DNA from: Minisyncoccota bacterium
GTDB taxonomy: Bacteria > Patescibacteriota > Minisyncoccia > UBA6257 > UBA9933
Reading direction: 5' to 3'
Assembly: GCA_041653755.1 (NCBI GenBank)
Contig: JBAZEU010000002.1
Location: 16,707-80,706, forward strand
DNA length: 64,000 nucleotides
Made by a program: the position numbers and the translations under genes
In this document: positions 16,158 through 29,723 of the stretch, piece after piece
How the letters are laid out: the number at the start of each line of letters is the position of its first letter
How positions within the stretch are numbered: the stretch's first letter is position 1
The notes under the pieces: model-generated
The model's input: the letters and a program-made list of their open reading frames with translations, nothing else
Told to the model about the DNA's origin: nothing
The model's database searches: none

Positions 16158-16160
16158 AAT

Positions 16161-16487
16161 TTAAAATTCTTCTAATGGATAAATATCAAAAGCCACCTCT
16201 TCGTAAGGATGCACCTTCTTTATTGTCGCAATAACATCTTTTGCAAGGCTGCGTTCACATACAAATTCTATTCGTTCTTCCTGAACCGATTCCAGCTTTC
16301 CAACCTGACCAATAGCTGGATGTGCACCACTTTCAGGTTTGAATCTCCCAATACCCTTAGAGGAAAAGCTACAATAAGTGTAATTTCCGATTTTTCCTGC
16401 GCCAGTCTTACCTATAGCTTCTCTAACTATATCCGTATGAGTTTCGGGAACAAATACAACGATTTTAATGTTTTTTGATTCACTCAT
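16161..16487 (-). CDS. small conserved protein (PII/CutA-like fold, Nif3-insert-domain-related; COG3323-like)
   Basis: 108 aa, [29 protein letters not shown] ... [14 protein letters not shown]. Confidence 0.4.
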   Translation of the reverse strand: [108 protein letters not shown]

Positions 16488-16489
16488 AT

Positions 16490-16852: not shown

Positions 16853-16865
16853 ATTATTAAGTTAA

Positions 16866-17834
16866 TTATAATCTTATTTCTTTTTCTAACCAATCTATTT
16901 TCTCATGCCTGCGCCGCCAGAATATGTCCTCCCAGATATAGTGAACTGCCAGCATCGAATAGCGACCATATTGCTTAAGAATATCCTTACGGATTGTGTT
17001 GGTTGAAACGAGTTTTTTATTATAGAAAAGCATTGAATAAATCTTCTGCTGCCAGGGAGCAATATGATCAAAAACATCGTAATGATGCAAGGCCTCAAAA
17101 AGCAATATACGTGAACTTTCAGGGCCGATTCCGTAAAGTTTAATCAGTTCATTTTTGGCATTCTCTTTATCAAGTGTCCGCAGTTGCATCTCATCCACCT
17201 TCTCTGCCGCAAAATCTTCAGAAAGACGTTTAATAAACTTCGCCCGATATCCAATCCTAAGATCGCGCAATTCCTGCTCGGTGACATCGGCCAAATCCTT
17301 GGGTAGCCAGATGGCATAAAAAGTCTTCTTATCAAACTCAACCTTAGTGCCGTATTTACTGAGCAATGCGTCTAACATTTGCTGACTACGTCGTACAGTC
17401 GCATTTTGTAAAACTACTGCGATTATAAGGAGTTCGTAGAGTGTGAACTGGCTCAGATTACGCATACCCATCCATTTCTTAAATATGGGATAGAATCGTT
17501 TATCCTTTTTAGCTAAAGCATTGAATTCTCCAAAATCTCTATCCAGCTCAAATCGCCAACTTATCTCTTTTTTAATAATCTCAAGTTCATCTTTCCCTAT
17601 ATTTCCCTTATAAAAAATTGATACTAAAAGCTCGGGCTTGGTTGCAGTGCCGCCATTTTTAATCTTCAATCCGAATAAATGCTTGCCAATCCGCAATGAT
17701 TGCCAATATACTCCTGGCTCCCAATCTTCCAATTTAAGATTATTAGGAAAATGTGATGGTTTGTGAAAAGTACCATCAAAATTAAATGGTGGCTTGGGAG
17801 AGAGAATAAAGTTTTTTGTAAGATTCAGTTTCAT
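16866..17834 (-). CDS. HhH-GPD superfamily DNA glycosylase (AlkA/Ogg-like)
   Basis: LIKLYGIGPESSRILLFEALHHYDVFDHIAPWQQ resembles the HhH-GPD LPGIG ... PDVFP-D motif; start set at an internal ATG to avoid overlap. Confidence 0.55.
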   Translation of the reverse strand: MKLNLTKNFILSPKPPFNFDGTFHKPSHFPNNLKLEDWEPGVYWQSLRIGKHLFGLKIKNGGTATKPELLVSIFYKGNIGKDELEIIKKEISWRFELDRDFGEFNALAKKDKRFYPIFKKWMGMRNLSQFTLYELLIIAVVLQNATVRRSQQMLDALLSKYGTKVEFDKKTFYAIWLPKDLADVTEQELRDLRIGYRAKFIKRLSEDFAAEKVDEMQLRTLDKENAKNELIKLYGIGPESSRILLFEALHHYDVFDHIAPWQQKIYSMLFYNKKLVSTNTIRKDILKQYGRYSMLAVHYIWEDIFWRRRHEKIDWLEKEIRL

Positions 17835-17836
17835 AC

Positions 17837-18673
17837 CTATTGAATAAACCCGCCATGCACAAAACAACGATAAATTATTTTACCCTTAAGCAAAATCTCC
17901 TCTATACCTGAAAATCTTGATAGGTCGCCGTCTACAGAAAACTTATACTCCCAATCTCCATCAACGAATTCGTTTGGGCCTCTAACGGGAACAGGGCTAT
18001 CATATTCTTGCATCAAGGCTTTTCTAAGAAAATTATAGACTTCTTTTTCTCCAATTTTTTCAGAAAGGATAAAGCCATAATAATTCGCGCCCCATGCTGG
18101 CTTTTCGTCCTGGTAGACAATCTCCTCACCGATAAAGTCTCGGCCACCAAAGTAAGTGTCGTGATAAATTAAGCCATCTTTTTCAAAATGATAATCCTCG
18201 GATTTCGGTCGACTTGATTCAACCTTTGGCGCATTCTTGTTTGCATATGTGCTCTTATTTGCTTCATTAAGAAAATGAGCAAGAACATCTTTCGGCAAGT
18301 CCTGATAATTTGGCAACTGATATTCTGGAATACCCAAAGTCAAACCATACTTTCTAACCTCGTCATATTGGGCTTTGTTATTACGATCGACATGAAAAAC
18401 CTTGTTTCTAAAAATAATGTAATGCTTCTTGTCATTCCTAAAATCTGCATACCAAGAGCTCACATGACTCATATCGATTACTTTGCTCAATTCTTGCGCT
18501 ATATCCTCGGCTTCAGATTCGGGAATCTCGACCCGATGCAAAGTCCATTGCTTTAGCCAGGGAGTTTGATGTTCGTCGATGACAGCCTCAACATTAGTCT
18601 TCAAAATCTTGAGTCGCTTGATGACCTTTGTATTATCCAAACTTTCTTCAATTATTGTGCCTTTGTAATTCAT
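17837..18673 (-). CDS. hypothetical protein
   Basis: 278 aa; 4-nt overlap with the downstream gene. Confidence 0.5.
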   Translation of the reverse strand: MNYKGTIIEESLDNTKVIKRLKILKTNVEAVIDEHQTPWLKQWTLHRVEIPESEAEDIAQELSKVIDMSHVSSWYADFRNDKKHYIIFRNKVFHVDRNNKAQYDEVRKYGLTLGIPEYQLPNYQDLPKDVLAHFLNEANKSTYANKNAPKVESSRPKSEDYHFEKDGLIYHDTYFGGRDFIGEEIVYQDEKPAWGANYYGFILSEKIGEKEVYNFLRKALMQEYDSPVPVRGPNEFVDGDWEYKFSVDGDLSRFSGIEEILLKGKIIYRCFVHGGFIQ

Positions 18674-19413
18674 TTGAAATATATATTTAAAAATTTCCCA
18701 AGCTCTGCGTTTACTTCCTCAATACTATCAGGAGAATAACGATAGTCATGAGTACTATGCAACTCTTTTATAATCTTGGGTTCGGGAGTATCCTCAAATA
18801 ACTTCCTGACGGTTTCGACTGGTGTAAATTCATCCTGATCGCCATAAATCAAAAGCTTCGATTTCTTACAATTTTTCAAGATTTCTCCCGCATTATATTG
18901 CTCGCCATCTTTCCAATAGGCGATCGGCAATTTGAATTCTTTCTGTTCCTTAGTTTCAGAAGTTCCTGGTGGCAAGTCTCTGTATGATAACTTGTAGCCT
19001 TTATTCATGGCTTCTTTGCCTGGCGCTGTGGGTTCTCCAAAGTTCGCCATGATTGGTACAATGCAGACTACGGCCGAATTCTCACTTGCGAATATCGATA
19101 CAGCAGCTCCTCGACTATGACCCAAAAGCAGAGTCGGTTTATTACCAAAATATTCAATCAGTTCGTTGACTGCTTTTATATAATTTGTGGTCGTATATAA
19201 ATCAATAGCCCCTGGACTTTCCCATGTCCCAGGTGGATCAAAGGCCACTGCATAAAAACCTTGCTTTGCGAGATAATCTGCATGGCTTGAAAAACAAGCG
19301 TAATCTTTAGTATCCAAACGGCCAGGCAAAATCAATGCTAATTTTTTAGCATTCTGATCGCCTCGCGTAAGCACCGCTAATTCAAATGATTTTGTTTTGA
19401 TAAGTTTATCCAT
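18670..19413 (-). CDS. alpha/beta-hydrolase fold esterase/lipase family protein
   Basis: GHSRG nucleophile elbow (GxSxG); start at the internal ATG to avoid a 59-nt overlap. Confidence 0.6.
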   Translation of the reverse strand: MDKLIKTKSFELAVLTRGDQNAKKLALILPGRLDTKDYACFSSHADYLAKQGFYAVAFDPPGTWESPGAIDLYTTTNYIKAVNELIEYFGNKPTLLLGHSRGAAVSIFASENSAVVCIVPIMANFGEPTAPGKEAMNKGYKLSYRDLPPGTSETKEQKEFKLPIAYWKDGEQYNAGEILKNCKKSKLLIYGDQDEFTPVETVRKLFEDTPEPKIIKELHSTHDYRYSPDSIEEVNAELGKFLNIYFK

Positions 19414-19417
19414 ATTA

Positions 19418-19864
19418 TTATTGTCCCCAGTCAATAAGTTCTGTAAATCGCAGATAGAATCCAAATGGATCTTCAACTCTGAAATCTCGCCAGAACGTTT
19501 CGCCGTCCTTTTTGCCCGTCACTGGTTGCTTGATGTTATCTTTTATCTTCGGCGCTATCTCATTATAAAAATCATCCACATGAGCGACGGGAATTGTTAA
19601 TTCGGTGGCGTACCCACGTTTTGTGTCTGTAGGAAAGTTCTTAAAATAAGCCTGGTTGTAGACTCTATCGTTACCGCCGTAAAAATTAAGGATCGTGTCA
19701 CCCTCATTATCATGTCGCCTGAGAACAAGATATCCAGGCTCCGTCGCAGTGGCCTTATTCTCCATAATCGGCTCGAAGCCAAGAAGGCCATAAAATTCCT
19801 TGGCAATGTTAAAATCTGGAACGTGTAATTCGATAATCAAATTGTTGCGTATAGGTAATTTCAT
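19418..19864 (-). CDS. VOC/glyoxalase-bleomycin resistance family protein
   Basis: 148 aa with two beta-alpha-beta-beta-beta modules (ELHVPDFNIAKEFY ...). Confidence 0.5.
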   Translation of the reverse strand: MKLPIRNNLIIELHVPDFNIAKEFYGLLGFEPIMENKATATEPGYLVLRRHDNEGDTILNFYGGNDRVYNQAYFKNFPTDTKRGYATELTIPVAHVDDFYNEIAPKIKDNIKQPVTGKKDGETFWRDFRVEDPFGFYLRFTELIDWGQ

Positions 19865-20463
19865 AATTTTTTATCTAATATCAAATATTTTATGAATTCT
19901 TTTCCAAACTCAGTTACTTTCACAAAAGGAGCAGCGATAGGGCCAACTCTGGATGAGTAATCTGACATCAATATTCCAGCAGTGACTAAATCATAAACAA
20001 GTTCATTTTTATTTTTAGTCTGTTCATAAATTTGATGGAAATCAGTCTTAGAAGTATCTACATCTCTCAAGACTACAAAATCATCAGCATTCAGAATACT
20101 TAAGATATGATACATCCTTTCCAACTCAAATCTATTCTGGTTATCAGATTGAGCAAAGCCCAGAAAAATAGCTCGCATCATTTTTCTTTTTTCTTCGTTT
20201 TTTTCACGAATATATCTCTCCAGAGCATACACAAATCCATCTTGAAATTTCGCATCTCTAAGAATGATCTCGGTGAAAGCTGACGGATTATCCTTAACCA
20301 TCTCAACCCATTCAAGCGCTCTCTGCTCACGAAGTTTCAAGCCCGCACCATATAAAGCCTTACTTAGACCCCAGGCTATATTCAGCCCAGGCAACGCCGA
20401 AGCGATTTGATCAGCGATGACTAATGCGGAGTCTTTTATAATTTGTTTATCTTTTTCGTTCAT
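19861..20463 (-). CDS. hypothetical protein, partner of the Mrr-domain fusion protein
   Basis: 200 aa; start overlaps the upstream gene's stop by 4 nt; no recognisable domain. Confidence 0.55.
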   Translation of the reverse strand: MNEKDKQIIKDSALVIADQIASALPGLNIAWGLSKALYGAGLKLREQRALEWVEMVKDNPSAFTEIILRDAKFQDGFVYALERYIREKNEEKRKMMRAIFLGFAQSDNQNRFELERMYHILSILNADDFVVLRDVDTSKTDFHQIYEQTKNKNELVYDLVTAGILMSDYSSRVGPIAAPFVKVTEFGKEFIKYLILDKKL

Positions 20464-21968
20464 GACTTTTTATTTTTAGATTTCTCTCTTTCAATAACAA
20501 AATCGTAGGTTTTCTTAAACTCATAAACATTCAGGGTTGCCTTTTTATCTGCTTCTTGTCCGATCTGCCGTTCTATCATCCATTGTTCTTCAGGATTTTT
20601 CTTAAGATAGTCTCCTAATTTTTCGCTTTCTGCATGTGTAATTTGGAGATAATATTTTGTGCTGCCTTCAGCGTCTTTATTAAGAATTAAGACTACATCT
20701 TTTGGTTTTAAGAAATTATACCGACCATCACATTCATAAAGGGTATTAAATGATTCATTGCCATGTTTAAGCATGTTAAAATCTGGATCATTTAGGGTTA
20801 TTCCTTTTTCTTCATGAATCGTTCCGATGGTGGGACTTGGAAAAGATTCTGTAAATTTTTTTACACGCTTATAGCCATCCAGAGATTGCTGTCTTTTTTT
20901 AACCTCCAAATATTCATAAGTGCCAGCAATTGGGCCAGTCTTAAAATCAAAATCAACAAATATGTGCGGGAAGTTATGCCATCCATCACCCTTATCGTCT
21001 ATAACCAGCATCTCATCATATCGAATTAACCCGTTACTAAAAAATGTTGCCTGGTGGCGATGGGGCAAATGTTCCCAAAAATCTTCAACCTTATCACGGA
21101 TTTCCTGTTGTTTAGTTCTTTCTTCATGGGAGTCACTATCTCGAAAAACAAGATCGGCGACTCCCGTAAAATCAAACTCTTTCTTTTCTATATCGATATA
21201 AGCAAAATGCTTACGTAAATTTACTATGATTCCAAGAGGATGATATTGAATAAACCTGTATTCGCGCCATCGGGGATGTTCGCCAAAATCTTTATACCCA
21301 TTCTTGTAAGGATATTTCGAATCCTTTGAATCTCGAAGCAAAATTGATTTATAAAAGTCGTTACCCTCGCCGAATGTTCTGTATAACTTATTTTTGCATG
21401 CTACAACCTGCCTTATTTCCGTGGCCCGTGACCGTCTTTTACTAACTAACGAAATTCCAAAAAAGGTAAAAAGAATGCGATCATTTTTTGGGAGATAGAG
21501 CATATCCTCAAGCTCCGCCTTTCCCCAAAGATAAAATTCCATTACGCCTTTGTTCCGCAGCTCTTCTCGAAACGCATCATAAGAATCTTTGGAAAAATTT
21601 GAAGAAGCGGCCAGAATGTATCCGTATGGAGGATTTTTAGAATCAACATCAGAAAGAATTTCTTTTACTCGTTTCGGGCCTATTTCTTTCTCTCTTTTTC
21701 CTTGAATCATCCAAAGATTACCTTCCATAGGGTGTTTTTCTTCTGCCTCGTCACTTACCTCATCGTTTTCAGGCTGGGAATTTTTATAAACTTTTTCATG
21801 GGCGCGGATGTCAAAACCTTCGTCATTTCCGCTCCTGCCAGTTGCTTCGATAGTTTGCCAATCTTTGTAGTCGTAAATAAGCTCTCGAATTAAATCTTCG
21901 AATCGATGAGGGTCTAAATCTTCAAAATGTATTGGCCCGTATGTTCTTGTGACTCTTGATTTCGCCAT
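20460..21968 (-). CDS. Mrr-type restriction-endonuclease (PD-(D/E)xK) N-terminal domain fused to a large unknown C-terminal domain
   Basis: FEDLIRELIY ... TGRSGNDEGFDIRA ... LWMIQGKRE ... GYILAASSNFS matches the Mrr_cat core (D ... QxK); roughly 330 aa C-terminal region unrecognised; start at internal ATG MAKSRV. Confidence 0.65.
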   Translation of the reverse strand: MAKSRVTRTYGPIHFEDLDPHRFEDLIRELIYDYKDWQTIEATGRSGNDEGFDIRAHEKVYKNSQPENDEVSDEAEEKHPMEGNLWMIQGKREKEIGPKRVKEILSDVDSKNPPYGYILAASSNFSKDSYDAFREELRNKGVMEFYLWGKAELEDMLYLPKNDRILFTFFGISLVSKRRSRATEIRQVVACKNKLYRTFGEGNDFYKSILLRDSKDSKYPYKNGYKDFGEHPRWREYRFIQYHPLGIIVNLRKHFAYIDIEKKEFDFTGVADLVFRDSDSHEERTKQQEIRDKVEDFWEHLPHRHQATFFSNGLIRYDEMLVIDDKGDGWHNFPHIFVDFDFKTGPIAGTYEYLEVKKRQQSLDGYKRVKKFTESFPSPTIGTIHEEKGITLNDPDFNMLKHGNESFNTLYECDGRYNFLKPKDVVLILNKDAEGSTKYYLQITHAESEKLGDYLKKNPEEQWMIERQIGQEADKKATLNVYEFKKTYDFVIEREKSKNKKS

Positions 21969-21978: not shown

Positions 21979-22167
21979 CTATTTGTTTTTCTTATTACTT
22001 GTCTTCTCCAAAAAAGCGTGCAAATCTGATTCCTTGATTCTCCAAACCCCAATCTTAGATGCCTTTAACTTTCCAGATTCAATATACCGAGTTACCGATC
22101 GACCACTGACTCTCAGGATTTTTGCTACTTCGGGAATCGTGAGAAGTTTTTCCATTTTGGAATTCAT
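21979..22167 (-). CDS. excisionase/AlpA-type helix-turn-helix DNA-binding protein
   Basis: 62 aa; LLTIPEVAKILRVSGRSVTRYIESGKL ... IGVWRIKESDL is a classic Xis-family HTH. Confidence 0.7.
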   Translation of the reverse strand: MNSKMEKLLTIPEVAKILRVSGRSVTRYIESGKLKASKIGVWRIKESDLHAFLEKTSNKKNK

Positions 22168-22199
22168 AAAATTTATTGACTATTGATACGTCCATTGTA

Positions 22200-22258
22200 G
22201 CTCTACAAATCTTTGTTGTCAAAGTTGGCATTTTTTGTCATAATGGAAATAAATTACA
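22200..22258 (+). promoter_or_regulatory. divergent promoter region (TTGTCA, 17 nt, CATAAT for the plus gene; TTGACT on the facing strand)
   Basis: Hexamers seen in the 97-nt divergent intergenic region. Confidence 0.35.
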
Positions 22259-22264
22259 ATTACT

Positions 22265-22897
22265 ATGAGCCTACCAAAAACAATTTCAGATATCATCAGG
22301 GCTATCCACGCCAAATTAGAGATTGCTCCAGAAAAAGATAGAATTATCGCTATTTCTCTGTGGGATTTCCAAGACCAAAGCGGAGACACCATACCCAAGG
22401 GTGACATGAAAAGTGGACTAAAAAAATTAGCAGAAGATGAAAAACTCTTTCAATTAAAAGACATCCGATGCCTTGATAAATTGGGAAGATTTTCTGGCGA
22501 AGAAATAAAGATCGAAATAGATCGTGAGCGATTTGTAAAATTCTACAAAAAACACCTCCAAGAACAAAAAGCTCCGATCGGTAATATTGAATTCTTAGAC
22601 GATGAGGCATTGTTAAAACTGGGGGATAAAAAATGTCCCTTACCGCCATATAAAAACGAGCACTTTTTCTGCCAAGCCGCTTTCGAGCATCCAATCAATG
22701 AGCCGATTGACTGGTCGATTATTTACGAAAAAATGACGGGCTATTATGAGAAACACTTTGGCAAAACAAAGGATACGAGAGAAAACTGGCATCAGGTATA
22801 CGACACGATGGAAGCAATCAATAAACGAGCGGAAGAATTATTGAATATAGAAAAGTTATTTGTTTGGCGGGAAAAATCGATAAAAAGAACCCGATAA
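22265..22897 (+). CDS. hypothetical protein
   Basis: 210 aa ORF; 9-bp inverted-repeat hairpin and a terminator downstream. Confidence 0.5.
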   Translation: MSLPKTISDIIRAIHAKLEIAPEKDRIIAISLWDFQDQSGDTIPKGDMKSGLKKLAEDEKLFQLKDIRCLDKLGRFSGEEIKIEIDRERFVKFYKKHLQEQKAPIGNIEFLDDEALLKLGDKKCPLPPYKNEHFFCQAAFEHPINEPIDWSIIYEKMTGYYEKHFGKTKDTRENWHQVYDTMEAINKRAEELLNIEKLFVWREKSIKRTR

Positions 22898-22956
22898 GCC
22901 AACAAAATCAATTGAGTCAACAAATTCTCAGTTGACTCACCCAGTGATTTTATAAA

Positions 22957-22989
22957 GTCAAAGCAGGATACGCTTTGGCTTTTTTAATT
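22957..22989 (+). terminator. rho-independent terminator
   Basis: caaagc/gctttg stem followed by gctttttt. Confidence 0.45.
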
Positions 22990-23011
22990 CGCCAGAGCTC
23001 CCACAAATTAT

Positions 23012-23296
23012 ATGTCCAAAAAATTATCCAAAAATGGGGAGCAAGAATACACGCCCGAAGACTACACAAAATATTTATCCACGTTTGATCTGGGAGCAGC
23101 CGCCTCACTGGTGTCGGCTGGTTTTGAGCTTGTCTCGCTGGATAAAACCAACCCCAGAAAAGTGCAGTTCATCTTTCGCCGAGTCATCGGCATTGAAAAG
23201 GTCGTTGATGATTACTGGTCAGATAAGCTCGAAGTTAAGGCACGATCATTCTTTGACAATGTGAAGATGCTAAAAAACCGAATCTATTCGGAATAG
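23012..23296 (+). CDS. DUF5659-like small protein (common in phage/plasmid/CPR mobile-element contexts)
   Basis: 94 aa; DLGAAASLVSAGFELVSL ... KVQFIF resembles the DUF5659 pattern. Confidence 0.45.
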   Translation: MSKKLSKNGEQEYTPEDYTKYLSTFDLGAAASLVSAGFELVSLDKTNPRKVQFIFRRVIGIEKVVDDYWSDKLEVKARSFFDNVKMLKNRIYSE

Positions 23297-23300
23297 GCCT

Positions 23301-23498
23301 ATGCTGTCGGACGAGCAAATTAAAAAATACCAGATGCTTCATAAGAATCGCTATGGCACAGAGATCAGCAGAGAAGAAGCATACACGAGAGGCGCACAGC
23401 TCCTCCGACTCATTGAACTTATTTACAAACCGATGACCGAAGAAGAATTCCAAAAACTTCAGGAGCGACGCAAGGAAACTGGCGACCTAAAAACCTAA
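23301..23498 (+). CDS. hypothetical small protein
   Basis: 65 aa, charged, helical. Confidence 0.4.
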   Translation: MLSDEQIKKYQMLHKNRYGTEISREEAYTRGAQLLRLIELIYKPMTEEEFQKLQERRKETGDLKT

Positions 23499-23509
23499 GT
23501 AAAAACATT

Positions 23510-25687
23510 ATGCAAGAATTACAAACAATTACCATTAAAGAATATTTATCCCGCAAAGGCGTTGCTTTTCGGGAGAGTGGCAATGAGCTCGTCGTTAAGT
23601 GCCTTTTTAATAACTGCGATAAAGATAGCCAATCAAACGAAGCTCACCTGTATTTTGATATTGCCACTGGCCAATACGAATGCAAGAAATGCGGCGAGAA
23701 AGGTAACCTCATAACGCTCGCAAAATATCTGGGGGATGATATAAGCGAGATCGCAATAAATCAGCGAGATTCAGCGATTAAGCCACGTCTCGCAAAATTT
23801 GGAGCTGTGTCGGCAGATGCCTGCCACTTGGCACTTACTCCCGATATCAGAAAGTATTTGAACGCCAGGGGCATTTCTGACCCCGTTGTGGACGCTTTCA
23901 AACTGGGCTGGGGAAAGTTCTACGGAAAATACTGGATTACCATACCCATAAAGAACATCTATGGGTCTTTTCAGTTTTTGAAATTACGCCAAGACCCGAA
24001 CGCTGGGAACGACAAAATGACTTATCCAAAAGGAATCGAGGCTCAGATTTACGGCTGGGAGATGCTGACGGAAAATCATGATCGGATAATAATCTGCGAA
24101 GGCGAGCTGGACAGGCTGGCTTTGCTCTCAAAAAATATTCCTGCCGTCACCTCAACGCATGGCGCACTGACCTTCAAAAAAGAATGGATAGAGAAAATCG
24201 GAAAAGGCAAAAAAATTTATATCTGCTACGACAACGACGAGGCTGGCAGAAAAGGATCGGAGCGGGTGGCAAAGTTGCTGGAAAATTCTGGCAATGAAAT
24301 CTTTATCGTTACGCTTCCAAACGAAGTCGGCGAAGGCGGAGACATTACTGACTACCTGGTAAAACTCAACGGCGATCCCGAAGATTTATTCAACAGATAC
24401 GCCAAACCCTATCCAGAGAAAATCGATGCCTCACAATTCAAACCATTAACCGCAAAAGAAATCGTTGAAACACTGGGATTGACTATAAAAAAAGATGAGG
24501 AAAATAAGCTGATAACATTTCTATGCGAGCTCTCGGCCTACACAGAAAACTCCCAGCTCAACATTTCTTTTAACGCCCCGTCATCAACAGGCAAGTCATA
24601 CATCCCAACTGAGATTGCCAGACTCTTTCCAGAAGACGATGTTATTGAAGTCGGTTACTGCAGCCCCACAGCATTTTTTCATGACGTGGGAGAATATGAC
24701 AAAGAAAGAAATGGCTACTTGGTAGACTTGAGTCGCAGGATTTTAATCTTTTTGGATCAGCCACACACCCTACTCCTTCAACACTTGAGGCCGCTACTTT
24801 CTCACGATAAAAAAGAAATTAGATTAAAAATCACTGATAAGTCTCAAAGAGCAGGCCTGAAAACCAAAAACATATTTCTCAGAGGATTCCCTGCGGTGAT
24901 TTTCTGCACGGCAGGACTGACGGCCGATGAACAGGAAGCAACTCGATTTATGCTCCTCTCTCCAGAAACCAATCAGGAAAAAATCAGGCAGGCAATCTAC
25001 GAAAAAATAAAGAAAGAAACCGATAGTCAGAAATACGAAAACCTACTGGAAGGGAACAAAGAAAGAAAATCCCTTAAAGAAAGAATACGAGCCATCAAAC
25101 TGGAAAACGTCAAGGGAATAAAAATAGGTTCACCAGAAGAATTAGAGAAGACGTTTTTCAGACAGAATAAAATGCTTAAACCAAGACACCAGCGAGACAT
25201 CGGCCGCATCATTTCTCTTGTCAAAGCATTTGCGCTATTGAATTTATGGTTTAGGGAAAGAGACGGGTCAATCATTGTTGCGAACGAAGATGATATCAAA
25301 GAAGCGTTCAACGTCTGGGATACGATTTCCGAGAGCCAAGAGCTCAATCTTCCGCCATATGTTTACAAGCTTTTTCAGGAAATAATAATCCCAGCATGGA
25401 ATGAAAAAAATCAAAGCCGAGACGAGTTTGAAAAAATCACGGGCCAGCTGGGATTAACCAGGCGAGAGATTCAGCGAAAACATGTTCAGGTTTATGGGAG
25501 AACGCTGGCCGACTGGTTTCTGCGCCAGCAAATTATTCCATTGCTTGAAAGCGCAGGATTGATCTGCCAAGAACCTGATCCGAATGATAAACGGAAAATG
25601 TTAATTTACCCCACCGCTCCACTCGGTAATTCAATAAGCCAAAACAATAGTGAGCCCAATGGTGGGGTAGAAAAATTAAGCCTATGA
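23510..25687 (+). CDS. primase-helicase: CHC2 zinc finger + DnaG-type TOPRIM + P-loop NTPase
   Basis: C-x5-C ... H ... C-x2-C zinc finger (KCLFNNCDKD ... HLYFD ... ECKKCGEKG); TOPRIM IIICEGELD and YICYDNDEAGRKG; Walker A FNAPSSTGKS and Walker B-like ILIFLDQPH. Confidence 0.8.
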   Translation: MQELQTITIKEYLSRKGVAFRESGNELVVKCLFNNCDKDSQSNEAHLYFDIATGQYECKKCGEKGNLITLAKYLGDDISEIAINQRDSAIKPRLAKFGAVSADACHLALTPDIRKYLNARGISDPVVDAFKLGWGKFYGKYWITIPIKNIYGSFQFLKLRQDPNAGNDKMTYPKGIEAQIYGWEMLTENHDRIIICEGELDRLALLSKNIPAVTSTHGALTFKKEWIEKIGKGKKIYICYDNDEAGRKGSERVAKLLENSGNEIFIVTLPNEVGEGGDITDYLVKLNGDPEDLFNRYAKPYPEKIDASQFKPLTAKEIVETLGLTIKKDEENKLITFLCELSAYTENSQLNISFNAPSSTGKSYIPTEIARLFPEDDVIEVGYCSPTAFFHDVGEYDKERNGYLVDLSRRILIFLDQPHTLLLQHLRPLLSHDKKEIRLKITDKSQRAGLKTKNIFLRGFPAVIFCTAGLTADEQEATRFMLLSPETNQEKIRQAIYEKIKKETDSQKYENLLEGNKERKSLKERIRAIKLENVKGIKIGSPEELEKTFFRQNKMLKPRHQRDIGRIISLVKAFALLNLWFRERDGSIIVANEDDIKEAFNVWDTISESQELNLPPYVYKLFQEIIIPAWNEKNQSRDEFEKITGQLGLTRREIQRKHVQVYGRTLADWFLRQQIIPLLESAGLICQEPDPNDKRKMLIYPTAPLGNSISQNNSEPNGGVEKLSL

Positions 25688-26376
25688 CGAGAGAAATAAT
25701 ACCAATTAAAAATAATAGCTTGAACCTCGACAACCCAGAGGATAGATTAATTTTTTACAAAGAAACCCTAAGCAAGATTACGAGCGTATTTTTTGACCCG
25801 CAAAAAATGGACGAAATCTATAAAGGGTTTGAAGAAATAGCAGAGCTTAGACGCAAGGCAAAAACAGAAAAAGAAGAAAAAGCACTAAACCAGAGATCGC
25901 TTAAACTAAGCCAGCAGGCCGCTCACATAAAATTGTATCCCTGGGAGAACCTGCTCCCGCTTGCCCTTAGCGGCAAAGAAGATATAACACCCGTCTCAGA
26001 AATGCGCAGCTCGCTCATTGACGAATACTGCCCGAAGACTCCAACCGAATTGGCCTTGATAGAAACCATCGCCATTGCCCATTATAACTTCATAAGAAAT
26101 ACGGGGGTTTTGAATACGCACCTGATGACCAAAGACGAAACTTCGAGAACGCTCCATTTTGACTCACTACAGATGAAAGCAGCAAAAGAAGCTGCAAAAG
26201 CCGTTGATCTTGCTTACAGGCAATTCACCAATTCAATTATGCTCCTGAAAGAACTGAGACAACCGAAATTAAATATCCATGTCAAAACCGAGAACGCTTA
26301 TCTTGCCAAAAATCAGCAGGTAATCAATGTCAAAAAATCAAACAGAAAAAAGGAGAAAATCATTAATGCCAAATGA
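25684..26376 (+). CDS. hypothetical protein
   Basis: 230 aa ORF translationally coupled to the primase. Confidence 0.5.
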   Translation: MTREIIPIKNNSLNLDNPEDRLIFYKETLSKITSVFFDPQKMDEIYKGFEEIAELRRKAKTEKEEKALNQRSLKLSQQAAHIKLYPWENLLPLALSGKEDITPVSEMRSSLIDEYCPKTPTELALIETIAIAHYNFIRNTGVLNTHLMTKDETSRTLHFDSLQMKAAKEAAKAVDLAYRQFTNSIMLLKELRQPKLNIHVKTENAYLAKNQQVINVKKSNRKKEKIINAK

Positions 26377-26707
26377 TTTCGGAAAAAAATATATGAGAAC
26401 CCTCATCGAACAATGCCAAAAAATCAATATCGACAGCCTGCTAAAAGACATAAAGGCCGAGATCAAGGAGTTGCGCCTGAAGATAAAGCTGAAGGAATTC
26501 GGACAGAAGATTGAAATAACTTCAACGCCTTGCTACTTCGGCGAAGAAAGATATTGGTTTATCTGCCCGAAATGCAGGAAACGAGCAGGAACTCTGTATA
26601 AGCCACCGACTCAAGACATCTTCCTTTGCCGAAAATGCCACGACTTAAAATACATGAGTTCCAGTCATCATCGAATGTTCGAAGAAAAATTAACCAAAGG
26701 CTTATAG
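26366..26707 (+). CDS. zinc-ribbon protein (C-x2-C ... C-x2-C)
   Basis: ATG after AAAAGGAG; CPKCRKR ... CRKCHD. Confidence 0.5.
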   Translation: MPNDFGKKYMRTLIEQCQKINIDSLLKDIKAEIKELRLKIKLKEFGQKIEITSTPCYFGEERYWFICPKCRKRAGTLYKPPTQDIFLCRKCHDLKYMSSSHHRMFEEKLTKGL

Positions 26708-26712: not shown

Positions 26713-26741
26713 TGAGAAATCAGACAAAATGAGGTAAAATA
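26713..26741 (+). promoter_or_regulatory. sigma70-type promoter
   Basis: TTGAGA, 17-nt spacer, TAAAAT. Confidence 0.5.
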
Positions 26742-26747
26742 TAATTG

Positions 26748-26896
26748 CGTCCTACAAGTTTGAATATCTGCACAGGGTGATTGCTTCTTTTGAAGCCCAA
26801 TTGCGGGCTGAAAGGGGCGACTATCCTCCACAATTGGTTGCCTTGTGCAATTCAATCTTGTGGGACGCAGGCTCTGGTCGTCCCTTTTTGTTTTAT
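26748..26896 (+). ncRNA. candidate small RNA or cis-regulatory leader (about 145 nt) with its own promoter and intrinsic terminator
   Basis: Promoter at 26713-26741; internal hairpins such as gcccaattgcgggc; terminator gggacg ... cgtccc plus tttttgttttattt at 26862-26896; no plausible ORF. Confidence 0.4.
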
Positions 26897-26961
26897 TTGA
26901 CTTCCTTAAACCTTTGGCCCATGTATGTGTGTAGAGCAATACAATTAAAAGTTTACATAAT

Positions 26962-27996
26962 ATGACAAGACCATTAAACACAAAAATATTAATATTAAGC
27001 ATTAGCGGAATAGTCCTGCTGACTTTGACGGCAATCGGGCTATTCGCATACTTCTCACTCTTTGGCGCACCGCAAACAAAAGCTGAGCCAGAAAGATTCA
27101 TCGTCTCAATGAATCAATCAAAACAAGACCTAATCGCAAAACTCCACGAGCAAGGATTTATCAAAAGCGAGTGGGGTTTTAATTATGCGCTTGAAGGAAA
27201 CGACATCCAGCCAGGCGGATACAAAATCTCAAAAAGCATGACGGCCTGGGAGATGGCGAAAGCACTTAAAGAACCTTACATGAAATGGGTCGTAATTCCC
27301 GAAGGATTAAGAAAAGAACAGATCGGAGAACTTATCGGTGATGCGCTTAGTTGGAACGAACAGCAAAAGAAAGACTGGGCCGTGAAGTATACAGCAATGG
27401 CTTACGACCAGCTGGAAGGCATTTACTTTCCTGACACATATCTCCTTCCGAAGGACGAAACAGTGCTCCAGATTTCTGATCGGCTGAGAGCTAAATTCAA
27501 TGAAAAATTTAAGCCTTATGCCAACAAATTTGTGACAGCTAATATCCAATGGACAACGGCATTAAAGCTTGCCTCAATCGTCCAAAGAGAAGCAGCTGGC
27601 AAGAGCGATATGCCACTCGTGGCAGGAATTCTCTGGAACAGATTATTAAAAGGAATGAAGCTCGAAGCTGACGACACAATCCAATACATCCGAGACGACG
27701 TGATCCATTACGGCGAAGCCAGATTTGATGCACAGCCAAAAAATTATACCAGCAAGGGAGATTGGTGGAAGCCAATAAAATTGGCCGATAAACAGATCGA
27801 GTCGCCTTATAACACATACAGAAATAAAGGACTTCCACCTCATCCAATCTGCAACCCAGGCCTGGATGCAATCGATGCGGTGTTAAACTCGGCCGACACT
27901 GAATGTCTTTATTATCTGCACGATTCAAGTGGACAAATTCACTGCGCCAAAACCTACGAGGAACACAAGGCCAACATTGAAAAATATTTGAAATAA
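26962..27996 (+). CDS. mltG: MltG/YceG-family endolytic transglycosylase (island copy)
   Basis: N-terminal TM, YceG-like domain; C-terminal YNTYRNKGLPPHPICNPG shared with the paralog at 40100. Confidence 0.75.
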   Translation: MTRPLNTKILILSISGIVLLTLTAIGLFAYFSLFGAPQTKAEPERFIVSMNQSKQDLIAKLHEQGFIKSEWGFNYALEGNDIQPGGYKISKSMTAWEMAKALKEPYMKWVVIPEGLRKEQIGELIGDALSWNEQQKKDWAVKYTAMAYDQLEGIYFPDTYLLPKDETVLQISDRLRAKFNEKFKPYANKFVTANIQWTTALKLASIVQREAAGKSDMPLVAGILWNRLLKGMKLEADDTIQYIRDDVIHYGEARFDAQPKNYTSKGDWWKPIKLADKQIESPYNTYRNKGLPPHPICNPGLDAIDAVLNSADTECLYYLHDSSGQIHCAKTYEEHKANIEKYLK

Positions 27997-27998: not shown

Positions 27999-29723
27999 AT
28001 GGAAAAGCCAGCTCAAAAAATTAAATACTTCCTCTACGCAAGAAAATCATCGGAGAGCGAGGATCGGCAGGTTCAATCCATTGATGACCAGATCGACCGC
28101 CTAAAAGAACTTGCCAGAGATTTGAGCTTGGATATCAAGAAAATATATAAGGAGTCGAAATCAGCAAAAAAGCCAGACAACAGGCCATTGTTTGACGAAA
28201 TGATTCAACGTATTGAAGAAGGTGAGGCTGACGGCATTTTATGCTGGCAAATTAATCGACTCTCAAGAAATCCTATTGATAGCGGAAAGCTAAGCTGGCT
28301 TTTGCAGCAGGGCACGCTTAAATCAATTCAGACCATAGATCGGCAATATCTTCCAGACGATAACGTTATTCTCTTCAGCGTTGAAAGCGGAACGGCCAAT
28401 CAATATATTCTTGATTTAAGAAAGAATGTAAAACGAGGCCAGGCATCAAAACTGGCCAGAGGTTGGATGCCCGCATGCGCTCCCCAGGGTTACTTAAACA
28501 GCAAGACAAAGGAAAAGGGAGATAACGATATTTTTAAAGACCCAGAACGCTTTCCGATGATACGGAGAATGTGGGATTTAATGCTGACAGGAAATTACAC
28601 ACCCCCTCAAATCGCAAAGATCGCGAACGAGCAATGGGGCTACACAACCAGAAAGACGAAACGATCTGGCGGTAATCCTCTATCAAAAAGTGGAATTTAC
28701 AGAATTCTCACAAACATTTTCTATACAGGAATTATTGATTACGGCGGCCAACAATACGAAGGCAAGCATGAACCGATAATCACACTTGAAGAATACGATC
28801 ACGTGCAGAAGCTTCTTGGGAGAAAAGGCAGACCCAGGGCAAAGAGTCATACCTTCGCCTTTACTGGCTCATTCCGCTGTGCTGAATGCGGTTGCCTTTA
28901 TACAGCCGAAGAAAAACAAAAGCTCATCAAGAAAACTGGCAAAATAAAGGAATACACCTATTATCACTGCACCCGACGCAGAGAAGATTATGATTGTTCG
29001 CAAAAGAAAAGCATCACGCTTGATGATTTGGAATTGAAGATTGAAAAAGAAATCGAGAAATACACGATTCTGCCAGAGTTTCTGCAGTGGGCACTGGAAG
29101 GCTTAAGCAAAAAGAACGACACAGAGATCGAGGACAGAACAAAGATTTACGAAATGCAACACAAAACACTCGTCCAAACTCAGAAAGAACTGGACGAGCT
29201 GACTAAAATGAGGTACCGCCAGCTCATTGATGACGAAACATTTGTCAAAGACAAAAACGAACTATCAACCAAAATCGCCCAATTGAAAAATAAGCTCAGG
29301 GAAACTGAGGCCAGGGCTGAACGCTGGCTTGAATTAACCGAAAATACTTTCAGCTTCGCTACTTACGCACGATCAGCATTTATTAAGGCCAGTGAAATAG
29401 GCAAGGCAGGGTTAGAACTGAAGAAAGAAATACTTCTGGCATTGGGCCAAAGCCCTAAAATTAAAGACGGAGAGCTCGTGATCGAGCCCAATGAATGGTT
29501 TGTGCCAATACAAAAAGGCTATCCTGCACTTGAAAAGAAATACTTAGCGTTAGAACCGACGAAATTGCCACTAAATAAAGCAAAAACAGAGGCTTTGGCC
29601 TCTGTTCGTGCACACTGGCGGAGAGGGAGGGATTCGAACCCTCGGGGCCCTTTCGAACCCAACATCTTAGCAGGATGCTGCTTTAAGCCACTCAGCCACC
29701 TCTCCTTGTTATATCTCGGTTAG
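27999..29723 (+). CDS. large serine recombinase (resolvase N-domain + recombinase domain + zinc ribbon); ORF reads into the tRNA-Ser 3' end
   Basis: YARKSSESEDRQVQSIDDQ with catalytic Ser; CWQINRLSRN (DRLSR-type); zinc ribbon CAECG ... HCTRRREDYDC; the last ~35 codons overlap the tRNA at 29616-29705. Confidence 0.8.
   Translation: MEKPAQKIKYFLYARKSSESEDRQVQSIDDQIDRLKELARDLSLDIKKIYKESKSAKKPDNRPLFDEMIQRIEEGEADGILCWQINRLSRNPIDSGKLSWLLQQGTLKSIQTIDRQYLPDDNVILFSVESGTANQYILDLRKNVKRGQASKLARGWMPACAPQGYLNSKTKEKGDNDIFKDPERFPMIRRMWDLMLTGNYTPPQIAKIANEQWGYTTRKTKRSGGNPLSKSGIYRILTNIFYTGIIDYGGQQYEGKHEPIITLEEYDHVQKLLGRKGRPRAKSHTFAFTGSFRCAECGCLYTAEEKQKLIKKTGKIKEYTYYHCTRRREDYDCSQKKSITLDDLELKIEKEIEKYTILPEFLQWALEGLSKKNDTEIEDRTKIYEMQHKTLVQTQKELDELTKMRYRQLIDDETFVKDKNELSTKIAQLKNKLRETEARAERWLELTENTFSFATYARSAFIKASEIGKAGLELKKEILLALGQSPKIKDGELVIEPNEWFVPIQKGYPALEKKYLALEPTKLPLNKAKTEALASVRAHWRRGRDSNPRGPFEPNILAGCCFKPLSHLSLLYLG
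29616..29705 (-). tRNA. tRNA-Ser (anticodon GCT), type II, CCA encoded
   Basis: Reverse complement GGAGAGGTGGCTGAGTGG ...; anticodon stem CATC/GATG with loop CTGCTAA; long variable arm; GGTTCGAATCC; ends CCA. Confidence 0.8.

Follow-up and report, generated by a model that had tools for sequence, protein, structure and literature searches.

A 14.2-kb island at a tRNA-Ser gene, probably still mobile, with its own large serine recombinase and a primase-AAA+ replication protein

Introduction

Six co-directional plus-strand genes (22265-26707), one of them encoding a primase-like protein, lie within the 64,000-nucleotide stretch of DNA analysed here (the window), raising the question of whether they belong to the core chromosome or to a mobile element. 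A sequence-only reading had proposed a plasmid- or phage-like replication module of an integrative element, and all six ORFs were recovered as it had placed them. With a probability of roughly 0.8, we read the block as part of an integrated, probably still mobile 14.2-kb island with its own large serine recombinase (LSR), replication protein and swappable cargo.

Results

The island spans 14,187 bp (15429-29615), with the six-gene block at its centre, and reaches about 6.8 kb to the left of that block. An 8-bp direct repeat, CTGGCGGA, read from the sequence, marks both ends, and the att cores (attL, 15428..15435; attR, 29615..29622) are identical. Homology to a related metagenomic locus, L001, begins exactly at attL, while past attR the homology to L001 and to a second locus, L004, is generic tRNA T-loop only. 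The insertion point is the CCA end of tRNA-Ser(GCT), at the very 3' end of the gene, and this target (29616..29705, minus strand; ARAGORN and Rfam, 57.7 bits) is intact. An intrinsic-terminator-like hairpin with a T-run (29584..29607, minus strand; inverted repeat I10) lies 8 nt downstream of the tRNA 3' end, inside the integrase coding sequence. It has 10 pairs, the longest stem of such sites in the region, and its sequence is kept in L001 and L004.

At the left end, a conserved terminal segment (15429..15563) is 94.8% identical to L001, L002 and L003, compared with 80% for the adjoining cargo in the same comparison. It includes the P' arm of attP (15429..15515, plus strand), an open 29-codon continuation that reads WRNIVKDVGKILQRQTEYIYIPNLSPQI up to a stop and that, by translation, would complete the integrase ORF in an excised circle. 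All element ORFs are open. An excised or circular form was looked for and not found: the same-genome contigs all carry the integrated form, exact-pattern searches across viral and metagenome collections returned 0 matches to a circular or attP-bearing contig of this element, and terminal overlaps occurred in no contig examined. No origin came to light, and a repeat search yielded no iterons.

Upstream of IF-2 in related Saccharibacteria, tRNA-Arg(GCG) lies next to tRNA-Ser(GCT), whereas 14.2 kb separates the two in the window; these empty-site relatives are not close, even the nearest sharing only 50-68% IF-2 identity. The host is probably Saccharibacteria-like. It has its own MltG elsewhere in the window (40100-41128) and encodes DprA, consistent with natural transformation.

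The LSR gene (27999..29723, plus strand; Pfam Resolvase, Recombinase and Zn_ribbon_recom, with PHROG matches) overlaps the oppositely oriented tRNA-Ser(GCT). The sequence-only reading had noted a large serine recombinase beside a tRNA and following the block; it does follow, but as part of the same element, with an unmentioned MltG gene in between. The element-encoded part of the LSR stops at W540 (29616-29618), and the final 34 codons are antisense tRNA-Ser plus its 5' flank. In an LSR alignment (A1), conservation extends to W540 and gives way to divergence beyond it, and the W540 codon, TGG, is the reverse complement of the tRNA CCA. Since conservation ends at this TGG, attP falls within the integrase gene, and the protein's C-terminal tail is swapped on integration. 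The same pattern runs through the family: in a census of 44 related metagenomic loci and the window, a complete opposite-strand tRNA begins exactly at that TGG. Nine anticodon types abut the junction across the 44 loci, and several cases scored as lacking a tRNA are intron-bearing tRNAs. Tails of attP type were found at L049, L029, L052, L064, L074 and L088; another marks the left junction of L001, where a truncated LSR runs on into the tail seen in the window. Such junctions may be tandem arrays, not free circles (L001, L029).

The left-end P' arm carries a GAAA motif at nt 26, compared with GAAC at nt 21 in the tRNA arms. Relative to its counterpart in attP, the T-loop GAAC of attB is placed 5 bp nearer the core, a constant offset (8/8 arms each) that agrees with the published shift of the LSR zinc-ribbon-domain (ZD) motif (PMC3783163). 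The best NCBIfam matches of the LSR, including CcrB, CcrC and CcrA, fall far under their cutoffs (72 bits against 900), and its IMG/VR relatives are only 21-24% identical. The LSR belongs to the element, and the literature searched held no description of this LSR-element family.

The integrase operon has a structured leader RNA (26735..26906, plus strand) with a conserved -10 box and a long hairpin (26745-26871). Its apical motif AAAGGGGCGA (26812-26821) is matched by a complementary stretch, TCGTCCCTTT (26879-26888), after which comes a T-run. The minimum free energy is -67 kcal/mol (z -5.8), and compensatory changes support the structure. A covariance model detects the RNA immediately ahead of the LSR start at some 20 divergent loci; there was no Rfam match. 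Identity to L001 is 95-97% for the leader RNA and the leftmost 135 bp of the element, compared with 80-84% for coding DNA, which points to purifying selection on sites needed for mobility.

The 725-aa replication protein (23510..25687, plus strand) combines a zinc-ribbon pattern and a Toprim primase region (residues ~1-300) with an AAA+ ATPase and a C-terminal helical/winged-helix region (~300-705). Its DnaG-type TOPRIM, already called from the letters, was borne out by Toprim_2 (2.8e-13) and three other Pfam Toprim models, by PDB sequence matches to DnaG and T7 gp4 primase domains, and by the presence of the Toprim Glu E197 and the DxD motif D241/D243. Residues 8-369 match the PHROG families DNA primase (2.5e-28) and primase/helicase (4.4e-24). 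The CHC2 zinc finger of the sequence-only reading survived as a Cys/His zinc-ribbon pattern (C31-x4-C36...H46...C58-x2-C61), without a Pfam zinc-finger model at E<=0.01.

The C-terminal P-loop is likewise present, its Walker A FNAPSSTGKS showing no variation across a family alignment of 46 sequences (S59, G62 and K63 of the C-terminal domain). In the same alignment Walker B reads LDQ and lacks the usual catalytic Glu, so ATP hydrolysis and helicase activity are only presumed. The C-terminal half, covered by no solved PDB structure at the sequence level, was modelled by AF2 with a pLDDT of 91, and its top 43 PDB Foldseek matches are all MCM. On this predicted fold, the protein joins a DnaG/T7-like primase domain to an AAA+ ATPase with MCM helicases as its nearest solved folds; it is neither DnaB-like nor D5-like. 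Of the label primase-helicase, the first term holds, and for the MCM-like half we infer helicase function. Pfam gave no match to DUF927 or Primase_Cterm, and the NCBIfam search no DnaB-binding domain. Neither the 50,697 phage records nor the 72,556 plasmids held a full-length relative, and the literature searched offered no description of a Toprim primase-MCM-like AAA+ fusion.

Sequences 65-92% identical to this protein occur across contigs whose labels name several CPR lineages, Margulisbacteria, Saganbacteria and Thermodesulfovibrionia. With the NCBIfam dnaG equivalog it scores 55 bits (cutoff 283.6), and in L004 a canonical 613-aa full-length DnaG lies 6 kb from the element copy; this host DnaG beside a sister element argues that the 725-aa protein is not host machinery. 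In primase-less variants a Phage_CRI-like rolling-circle Rep candidate fills the same slot, which argues that the slot serves replication initiation.

Linkage of the other plus-strand genes was counted in 40 LSR loci with at least 5 kb upstream. A 65-aa conserved protein (23301..23498; 28-85% identity) is the most closely tied to this LSR clade (38/40 loci), followed by the 94-aa DUF5659 protein (23012..23296; 33/40), whose earlier assignment was upheld by Pfam PF18903 (E 1.1e-10, over cutoff). The primase is present in 18/40. The earlier statement that DUF5659-primase modules recur needs adjusting: the block's gene order does repeat in many independent metagenomic loci, and so is not due to chance, but DUF5659 and the 65-aa gene are tied to the recombinase more closely than the primase is. 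The 126-aa protein (26327..26707), found in 18/40 loci nearly always alongside the primase, has the CPKC and CRKC pairs of the zinc ribbon ascribed to it, although its Pfam match is sub-threshold (Zn_ribbon_10, E 0.0036). The 230-aa protein (25684..26376) has tblastn relatives at 30-41% identity in several loci and at 90% in L037, and its C-terminal half is kept in proteins of about 160 aa in related elements. The 210-aa protein (22265..22897) occupies a variable slot: it has relatives in only 2/40 loci, shows no DNA-level conservation with L001 or L004, and is replaced in other elements by unrelated proteins of 240-530 aa. As the sequence-only reading had it for the 210- and 230-aa proteins, neither these nor the 65-aa protein matched a family in Pfam, PHROGs or NCBIfam.

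Back-to-back promoter-like sites (22194..22244), the two best sigma-70-like matches of the region (11/12 and 10/12, by consensus match only), separate this operon from a minus-strand HTH_17 gene (21979..22167; Pfam HTH_17 1.9e-16, NCBIfam 'excise' 4e-10, PHROG excisionase families). The gene has the same position in L001 and stands directly upstream of the LSR in L045, L046, L056, L074, L093 and L094; judged by sequence, its product is a candidate regulator or recombination directionality factor. A PHROG terminase-small-subunit match (2.5e-05) is weak and far below its excisionase matches. Further left lie a Mrr_cat restriction-endonuclease-like protein (20460..21968, minus strand; Pfam 1.5e-07), 502 aa from an internal ATG as in the gene call of same-genome contig L104 (the ORF lister extends it to 22052), and a minus-strand cargo arm (15561..20463). 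By Pfam, the arm encodes a LysE-type exporter, a P-II-like protein, PNPOx, an HhH-GPD-like protein, DUF5680 and an alpha/beta hydrolase, together with 148-aa and 200-aa proteins without an assigned family; 16490-19874 is common to L001 at 80% DNA identity. Between leader RNA and integrase, the element carries a YceG/MltG endolytic transglycosylase (26962..27996, plus strand; Pfam 8.8e-69, NCBIfam MltG 7e-43), present in 3/40 related loci and only 31% identical to the host MltG.

PHROGs was run on the ten ORFs of 20460-29723, and the leftward cargo ORFs were covered by Pfam only. Apart from the weak terminase match, the PHROGs matches were confined to primase, integrase and excisionase/HTH types (HTH_17 protein), which, with 0/50,697 phage records holding a full-length primase relative, did not bear out the term phage-like. 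Phage-structural, relaxase and T4SS genes were absent by Pfam on all element ORFs and PHROGs on 20460-29723, and this PHROGs scan returned no capsid, redirecting or lysis genes.

Discussion

The junctions, the empty site in relatives, the distribution of the replication protein and its non-DnaG score support assigning the block to an integrative element, as its replication module, rather than to the core chromosome. A fixed remnant, integrated in the past and now inherited vertically, its replication genes relics or co-opted, seems unlikely. It would suit the exclusively integrated contigs, the scans without a circle, and degraded copies elsewhere, such as the truncated LSR that lies to the left of the element in L001. 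It sits poorly with intact ORFs, identical att cores, an open attL tail and the preferential conservation of left end and leader RNA, and with three primases (P0001-P0003) 92% identical to the window's in different flanking contexts, their modules 84-87% identical at the DNA level. Equally doubtful is a helper-dependent satellite that excises and replicates but is transferred by a co-resident phage, vesicles or host competence. Integrase, excisionase-like HTH and primase/helicase without transfer genes is the PICI/tycheposon layout (10.1101/2020.12.28.424599; PMC7581432), and the host's DprA would fit; the missing capsid and redirecting genes, a sole packaging-related match that is weak and falls on the HTH_17 protein, and the remoteness of the IMG/VR LSR relatives count against it. 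To our knowledge, no helper phage for the element has been described. This reading refines the transfer step of the main model and does not contradict it.

A prophage or its remnant is very improbable: PHROGs do match primase, integrase and excisionase-like protein, but the ten ORFs scanned give no structural or lysis match beyond the weak terminase hit, 14.2 kb is too small, and the replication protein lacks a full-length relative among the phage records. Least credible is that these are host replication genes, supplying a reduced genome with its sole DnaG/DnaB equivalent. CPR genomes are indeed reduced, and no more than 64 kb of this one is in view; yet the protein falls far short of the dnaG cutoff, lacks a DnaB-binding domain, is shared by contigs labelled as different phyla and has a canonical DnaG beside its sister copy in L004, and relatives lack the segment at the syntenic site.

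For the favoured reading, a mobile island, we propose that the LSR inserted the element by attP x attB recombination. The common core, TGGCGGA, comprises the encoded CCA and discriminator base of tRNA-Ser(GCT) plus its first acceptor bases. The tRNA is left intact, with a new terminator hairpin supplied behind it by the element. The last 27 integrase codons are exchanged for antisense-tRNA codons, and excision would restore a 567-aa protein. On the excised circle, the 725-aa protein may initiate replication, its AAA+ half melting or unwinding a putative origin and its Toprim half laying primers, with host polymerase copying. The DUF5659, 65-aa, 230-aa and zinc-ribbon proteins could be accessory, regulatory or directionality factors, and the integrase is presumably expressed from its own promoter through the leader RNA. 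The left arm, with its Mrr-like nuclease, hydrolases and exporter, is swappable cargo.

By analogy, the closest counterparts are SCCmec elements and tycheposons. Staphylococcal SCC/SCCmec elements are likewise islands with variable cargo moved by large serine recombinases; a self-loading initiator helicase operon (Cch, or Cch2 with primase) lies just upstream of the recombinase, insertion falls at the very 3' end of a housekeeping gene that is conserved and keeps its function, and replication after excision is likewise inferred (PMC7581432). They differ in their target (rlmH, against a tRNA gene here), in using CCPol-MP or a separate primase instead of a DnaG/Toprim-type domain fused to AAA+, and in their recombinases, of which the window LSR is not a Ccr orthologue; here, too, attP lies within the integrase ORF and the hosts are CPR and other uncultivated lineages. 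Prochlorococcus tycheposons share tRNA targeting, a recombinase at one end, primase/helicase, excisionase, swappable cargo and tandem arrays at the same tRNA; 27/937 have a large serine recombinase and 910/937 tyrosine recombinases (10.1101/2020.12.28.424599). Hallmark gene families and host phylum differ, and the portion of their description consulted notes no equivalent of the DUF5659/65-aa pair or the leader RNA. SaPI/PICI islands of about 15 kb also combine an integrase, an excisionase-like protein and a primase-helicase (Rep) initiator, and replicate after excision (as summarised in PMC7581432). PICIs differ in their tyrosine integrases and packaging/interference genes, for which the ORFs scanned offer one weak terminase match, on the HTH protein, and SaPI origins have iterons downstream of rep, of which the repeat search found none here.

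T7 gp4 and the Bacillus cereus prophage MCM-primase also join a primase to a hexameric-helicase-type ATPase in one polypeptide, the latter pairing MCM with a 'primase domain' (PMC3273815). T7 gp4 differs in pairing its Toprim primase with a RecA-fold SF4 helicase. The BcMCM primase domain we take to be of archaeo-eukaryotic type.

The integrases of A118/LI, Bxb1 and phiC31 share with the window LSR three domains and a ZD motif 5 bp nearer the crossover in attB than in attP (PMC3783163). The window LSR differs from them in that its attP overlaps the integrase's own stop-proximal codons. Their known attB sites lie in protein-coding genes or intergenic DNA, whereas the window family uses tRNA 3' ends as attB, with at least nine tRNA types represented. 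Use of tRNA genes by serine integrases was termed unreported in 2020 (PMC7192596). The family described here is large, and its serine integrase is unusual in targeting tRNA genes.

Boundaries of the island and its empty site

The six co-directional plus-strand ORFs between 22265 and 26707, taken in the sequence-only reading for the replication module of a mobile element, lie exactly at those positions and prove to be the replication core of an island with exact boundaries that targets tRNA genes and is driven by a serine integrase. The boundaries were determined by comparison with contigs carrying 92%-identical primases (L001-L006), in which the common gene order is a variable gene, DUF5659, a ~65-aa protein, the primase, a ~160-aa protein, a ~128-aa zinc-ribbon protein, an optional gene and a large serine recombinase (LSR). 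On the right, the window remains homologous at the DNA level to L001 and to L004 as far as position 29640. Inspection of this junction revealed that element-specific sequence ends with ...GTTCGTGCACAC directly before a TGG, beyond which the loci differ, each reading into the 3' end of another tRNA gene in reverse complement. At the left end, homology to L001 starts at 15429 with TGGCGGAACATCG. The sequence CTGGCGGA forms a direct repeat at 15428-15435 and 29615-29622. From the repeat copies and the homology end points, the element therefore extends over 15429-29615, a length of 14,187 bp.

The host is Saccharibacteria-like, with an IF-2 68% identical to that of the best genome match. Its relatives share the order tRNA-Arg(GCG), a short relative of the 163-aa ORF in the window, tRNA-Ser(GCT), IF-2 and RbfA, followed by tRNA-Cys and tRNA-Leu where the contig reaches that far (L008-L010), and the gap between tRNA-Arg(GCG) and tRNA-Ser(GCT) is 17-320 nt (L007, L009). 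In the window, where these flanks recur, the island separates the two tRNA genes. The NDK ORF as called (13842-14426) is over-extended, its first codons overlapping tRNA-Arg at 14368-14440. A second serine tRNA, tRNA-Ser(TGA) at 61822-61911, also ends in ...CCTCCGCCA (reverse complement TGGCGGAGG); it has an 8-nt core in common with the element site attP, is unoccupied in the window, and is a possible secondary integration target.

The exact 42-nt left-end pattern had 0 matches in both the viral and the metagenome collection, giving no free attP form of this element, and a terminal-overlap test identified no circular contig among the fetched loci. Contigs of the same genome, recovered via the 138-aa flank protein and IF-2, were all in the integrated form. 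One of these same-genome contigs, L106 (Logan SRR18595300), corresponds to window 29617-31902, so that it begins within the att core, a single base past the T of TGG. The break may reflect an assembly branch between occupied and empty site, but it lies 2 nt off the position expected for an attR/attB fork and is not counted as evidence. A repeat does not account for it, as the second tRNA-Ser has only 8 nt in common.

A large serine recombinase that abuts tRNA 3' ends

The recombinase noted beside a tRNA is a three-domain LSR (27999-29723, plus strand), and its ORF runs antisense into tRNA-Ser(GCT) at 29616-29705. The N-terminal catalytic domain matches Pfam Resolvase (2.2e-18), with a serine nucleophile motif, YARKSSESEDRQ, invariant in the LSR alignment; C-terminal to it are matches to PF07508 (3.9e-12) and PF13408 (5.1e-09), the Recombinase and zinc beta-ribbon domains. 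The protein also matches the PHROG integrase family phrog_95 (2.7e-69). This domain composition, together with the shifted position of the motif for its zinc-ribbon domain (ZD) described below, marks it as a large serine recombinase of the serine integrase type, predicted to recombine attP with attB. In a three-LSR alignment, identity to the window LSR is 73-88% up to W540, and the sequences are unrelated beyond it.

To place this junction in a wider context, 80 further metagenomic LSR loci were fetched. In 44 of the 80, as in the window, a complete opposite-strand tRNA begins exactly at the Trp-encoding TGG, which is the encoded CCA of the tRNA. The targets among the 44 were Asn(GTT) in 13 loci, Ser(GCT) in 8, Gln in 6, Trp in 5, Ser(GGA) and Asp in 3 each, and Glu, His and Ser(TGA) in 2 each. 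Several loci for which ARAGORN called no tRNA have a group I intron directly after the junction (L004:15858-16087, L036:2689-2961, L045:11612-11815 and L098:4643-4897, minus strand), indicating that their targets are intron-bearing, Asn-like tRNAs missed by the program. Such introns fit the intron-bearing tRNAs reported for Patescibacteria (PMC13011429).

About seven loci, and the left junction of L001, have a non-tRNA tail past the junction, resembling the 29 codons at the window's left junction attL (WRNIVKDVGKILQRQTEYIYIPNLSPQI, then a stop). These junctions are of the attP type (P-O-P'), derived either from free forms or from tandem arrays; signs of tandem arrays are a truncated LSR left of the L001 element and a second LSR 4 kb downstream in L029. 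For the window, the junctions predict an attP form ...TCTGTTCGTGCACAC-TGGCGGA-ACATCGTGAAGGATG... and an attB form, the target at the tRNA end, ...TTGTTGGTTCCCAGC-TGGCGGA-GAGGGAGGGATTCG....

In the tRNA arms (8/8) the motif GAAC begins at nt 21, counted from the T of TGG; in the attP-type arms (8/8) it begins at nt 26 and reads GAAC, or GAAA for the window type. A ZD motif located 5 bp inward in attB relative to attP is a published hallmark of serine-integrase sites (PMC3783163). From this geometry we infer that the universal T-loop sequence serves as the ZD motif, which would explain the hops of the clade between tRNA species. After the TGG, attP and attB have 7-10 nt in common, placing the crossover in the discriminator/acceptor end, with the tRNA regenerated unchanged.

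As a consequence, the integrase ORF crosses attP: the excised form would encode a protein of 567 aa, and the integrated form in the window is 574 aa with an antisense-tRNA tail. The tail may serve the protein or be conserved as DNA alone. In many loci the LSR frame stops 3-4 codons past the Trp. A minus-strand hairpin at 29607-29584 (10 bp plus a T-run) lies within conserved integrase codons, 8 nt past the tRNA 3' end, and is probably a replacement terminator for tRNA-Ser.

The replication protein

The 725-aa protein (23510-25687, plus strand) carries the expected Toprim primase, matching four Pfam Toprim models (best Toprim_2, 2.8e-13). Residues 8-369 match PHROGs DNA primase (2.5e-28) and primase/helicase (4.4e-24) families, and the Toprim residues E197 and D241-x-D243 are present. 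In a PDB sequence search, only DnaG and T7 gp4 primase domains matched, over residues ~117-292. The CHC2 zinc finger claimed from sequence survives as a visible pattern, C31-x4-C36...H46...C58-x2-C61, but not as a domain assignment, with no Pfam zinc-finger model matching at E<=0.01. These features point to a DnaG/T7 gp4-like Toprim primase domain with a putative zinc-binding element preceding it. The protein is not a bacterial DnaG orthologue: it scores 55.4 bits, far below the 283.6-bit cutoff of the TIGR01391 equivalog, only the Toprim segment aligns, and Pfam gave no match to Zn_ribbon_DnaG, DNAG_N or DnaB_bind; the L004 locus has a true DnaG for comparison.

The reported Walker A motif is present (G361 K362 S363) and invariant across the family. 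Clustered at 50% identity, the family defined by the C-terminal 426 residues comprises 1,560 clusters, with both Toprim-fused and stand-alone members. An AlphaFold (AF2) model of this half, built from 46 sequences, reached a pLDDT of 91. In a Foldseek search of the PDB the top 43 matches were all MCM proteins, eukaryotic MCM2-7 or archaeal (E 4.7e-09 to ~2e-06, probability 1.0; query-normalised TM 0.38-0.50), with RavA next. Against a viral structure library, the best matches were unnamed proteins and fusellovirus ORFs, then MoxR-like ATPases and, lower still, DUF927, DUF3987 and NrS-1-type helicases. The modelled fold thus places the C-terminal half among the AAA+ ATPases close to MCM, with a helical/winged-helix region at its C-terminus; it is neither a DnaB-type nor clearly a D5-type helicase. 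An invariant Arg occurs in a 'TRF' motif, and Walker B reads LDQ, lacking the Glu; ATPase activity is predicted only. At the sequence level there was no MCM Pfam match, and no PDB sequence match for residues 300-725. The N-terminus holds the primase domain where MCM has an OB-fold/zinc DNA-binding domain. The model therefore suggests a protein that is MCM-like in fold and may work like an MCM, with no sequence-level sign of membership in the MCM family.

More than 2,300 primase homologues were found. INPHARED phages and PLSDB plasmids contained no full-length relative, the primase half alone matching there at 26-29% identity, and an exact lookup of the 725-aa sequence returned no record. A search of the element for an origin or iterons gave only short two-copy repeats, as expected by chance.

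Composition of the module and cargo

Among the remaining module genes, the DUF5659 assignment of the 94-aa protein was confirmed (Pfam E 1.1e-10). The 126-aa zinc-ribbon protein has two CxxC pairs, but its Pfam zinc-ribbon match is sub-threshold. The 210-, 65- and 230-aa proteins had no match in Pfam, PHROGs or NCBIfam, and PADLOC, applied to the cargo and the unknown proteins including those of 210 and 230 aa, returned nothing significant. Downstream of the module is a YceG/MltG gene (26962-27996, 8.8e-69), 31% identical to the host MltG, which is located at 40100-41128 beside FtsW.

The generality of the module was examined in the 40 LSR loci whose upstream sequence reaches 5 kb or more. The 65-aa gene was present in 38 of them and DUF5659 in 33, followed by primase-AAA+ and the zinc-ribbon gene (18 each), a relative of the 230-aa protein (9) and MltG (3). 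DUF5659 and the 65-aa protein thus travel with the integrase and may act as its regulator or as a directionality factor. Variants lacking the primase have an ORF of 376-384 aa in its slot (L025:8678-9832, L045:8529-9659). For the L025 ORF, the rolling-circle initiator family Phage_CRI matched weakly over nearly the full length (E 0.0016, below cutoff), which suggests a replication-initiator slot that may be exchanged between elements.

An HTH_17/excisionase-family gene is divergent from the operon in the window and in L001, and directly precedes the LSR in other loci. The HTH_17 and 65-aa proteins are both candidate directionality factors for excision. The neighbouring Mrr-like ORF (listed as 20460-22052) is over-extended and overlaps the HTH_17 gene at 21979-22167; it starts at the ATG at 21968, giving 502 aa as called on contig L104. 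Copies of the LOOT RNA, an orphan Rfam motif (RF03000), occur on the minus strand inside three related elements (L040:2155-2274, L042:5035-5162, L045:5996-6118), upstream of and divergent from the DUF5659 operon, and next to the L004 element, beyond its boundary, is a DUF3800-IX RNA (L004:17271-17335). The window element has neither RNA.

A structured leader RNA upstream of the integrase

The zinc-ribbon gene and MltG are separated by 254 nt that are 97% identical to L001, compared with ~84% for the adjoining coding DNA. This gap holds a leader RNA (26735-26906, plus strand), also found at L026:9867-10012, L033:9863-10011, L060:9854-10001 and in ~20 other loci. The RNA folds into a long four-helix hairpin (-67 kcal/mol, z -5.8) starting ~6 nt past a conserved -10 box. 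A covariance model built from six sequences located the motif in 25 loci, nearly always ending at the LSR start codon. It follows that MltG, wedged between leader and integrase in the window, was inserted there, as was a 288-aa ORF in L004; the island MltG is presumably co-regulated with the integrase.

In the model-fitted alignment, 93% of cells pair, versus 62% in shuffled and 35-44% in slid controls, and double changes occur in 35 of 36 pairs, figures that the fitting biases upward. Analysis of 19 divergent copies with MAFFT and RNAalifold revealed a long-range helix of AAGGGGCGGYY with RRCCGUCCCUU, whose distal pairs covary (GA/TC, AG/CT, GG/CC, AT/AT, AA/TT). Through this helix the apical loop of the hairpin is connected with the sequence immediately preceding the start codon: the loop AAGGGGCGR is complementary to YCGUCCCUU near the start codon, and both pairings covary. 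In the window, the two strands of this helix are AAGGGGCG/CGUCCCUU. With a linker of only ~4 nt from the base of the hairpin to the helix, the two pairings are either a compact pseudoknot or alternative switch states. In the window, a terminator can also form when the 3' strand of the hairpin pairs with that downstream segment. The leader looks like a regulatory switch or pseudoknot. A role as a targeting guide, by analogy to the IS110 bridge RNA, was rejected, as L004/L095 and L055 have identical leaders and different tRNA targets. Rfam 15 gave no match to the leader at E<=1.

Relation to known mobile elements

In logic, the layout is closest to SCC/SCCmec, where the serine recombinase gene directly follows an operon for an initiator helicase and a primase, and the insertion occupies the 3' end of a housekeeping gene (PMC7581432). 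Membership of that class was rejected, with CcrB at 72 bits and CcrC at 57 against cutoffs of 900, and a target of tRNA-Ser, not rlmH. Tycheposons also have a recombinase at the element end abutting a tRNA, replication genes, variable cargo and tandem arrays, a likeness that is functional only; a large serine recombinase was reported for 27 of 937. The ten ORFs of 20460-29723 gave no structural or lysis PHROG match indicative of a prophage; the HTH_17 protein matched a terminase small subunit weakly (phrog_57, 2.5e-05), its best matches being excisionase families. The cargo arm (15561-20463) was covered by the Pfam scan, in which no element ORF of at least 90 aa matched a relaxase, coupling protein or T4SS component of an ICE or IME.

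Use of tRNA genes by serine integrases was found in 14 of 297 candidate cases by Mageeney et al., who called it previously unreported (PMC7192596), and in that 2020 work it was considered in need of proof. Our literature search found no published description of this element family, of DUF5659 or of a Toprim and MCM-like fusion. For the window copy, excision, replication and transfer are predicted; its notable features are the tRNA-end att geometry, the integrase ORF crossing attP and the leader RNA. A more ambitious joint reading, to which we give a probability of roughly one in three, is that the island is one member of a large family of serine-integrase islands, with no description found in the literature searched, whose integrase reads generic features of tRNA 3' ends and differs as a protein between the integrated and the excised state, and whose integrase expression is gated by a new riboswitch-like leader RNA with two covarying pairings that exclude each other. 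The features read would be the CCA encoded by the tRNA gene, its acceptor end and, at a fixed spacing, the universal T-loop GTTCGAA, and one scaffold would retarget to at least nine tRNA species in several bacterial phyla.

Other features of the window

The 23S rRNA match (4362-7813, GC 0.48) spans 3,452 nt against a 2,925-position model, corresponding to ~0.5 kb of insertion(s); such insertions are common in CPR rRNA genes. A 101-nt Rfam tRNA match at 37596-37696 has no ARAGORN call and possibly contains an intron or long insert, and a weak tRNA adjoins it at 37701-37773 (ARAGORN Gly(ACC), 34 bits in Rfam). Two class-I aminoacyl-tRNA synthetase genes match the Leu editing domain, one weakly (10451-12589, 712 aa) and the other a clear LeuRS of 801 aa (55684-58089).

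Significance

Serine integrases are genome-engineering tools, and a clade keyed to tRNA ends, with many attP/attB pairs readable from metagenomes, is a practical resource; if the T-loop is the ZD recognition motif, the clade would consist of natural integrases whose landing sites are nearly universal. For biochemistry, the fusion of a Toprim primase with an MCM-like AAA+ ATPase, apparently exchanged for a rolling-circle Rep in the corresponding slot of other elements, offers a compact replication initiator, and the leader is a candidate new class of cis-regulatory RNA tied to integrase control. Genes for tRNAs were thought to be the preserve of tyrosine integrases; here a whole serine-integrase clade uses them with consistent att geometry. 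Little has been charted of the mobile elements in CPR/Patescibacteria and other uncultivated lineages, and a recurrent island type is now defined base by base, showing how nucleases, an extra MltG and exporters move between such genomes.
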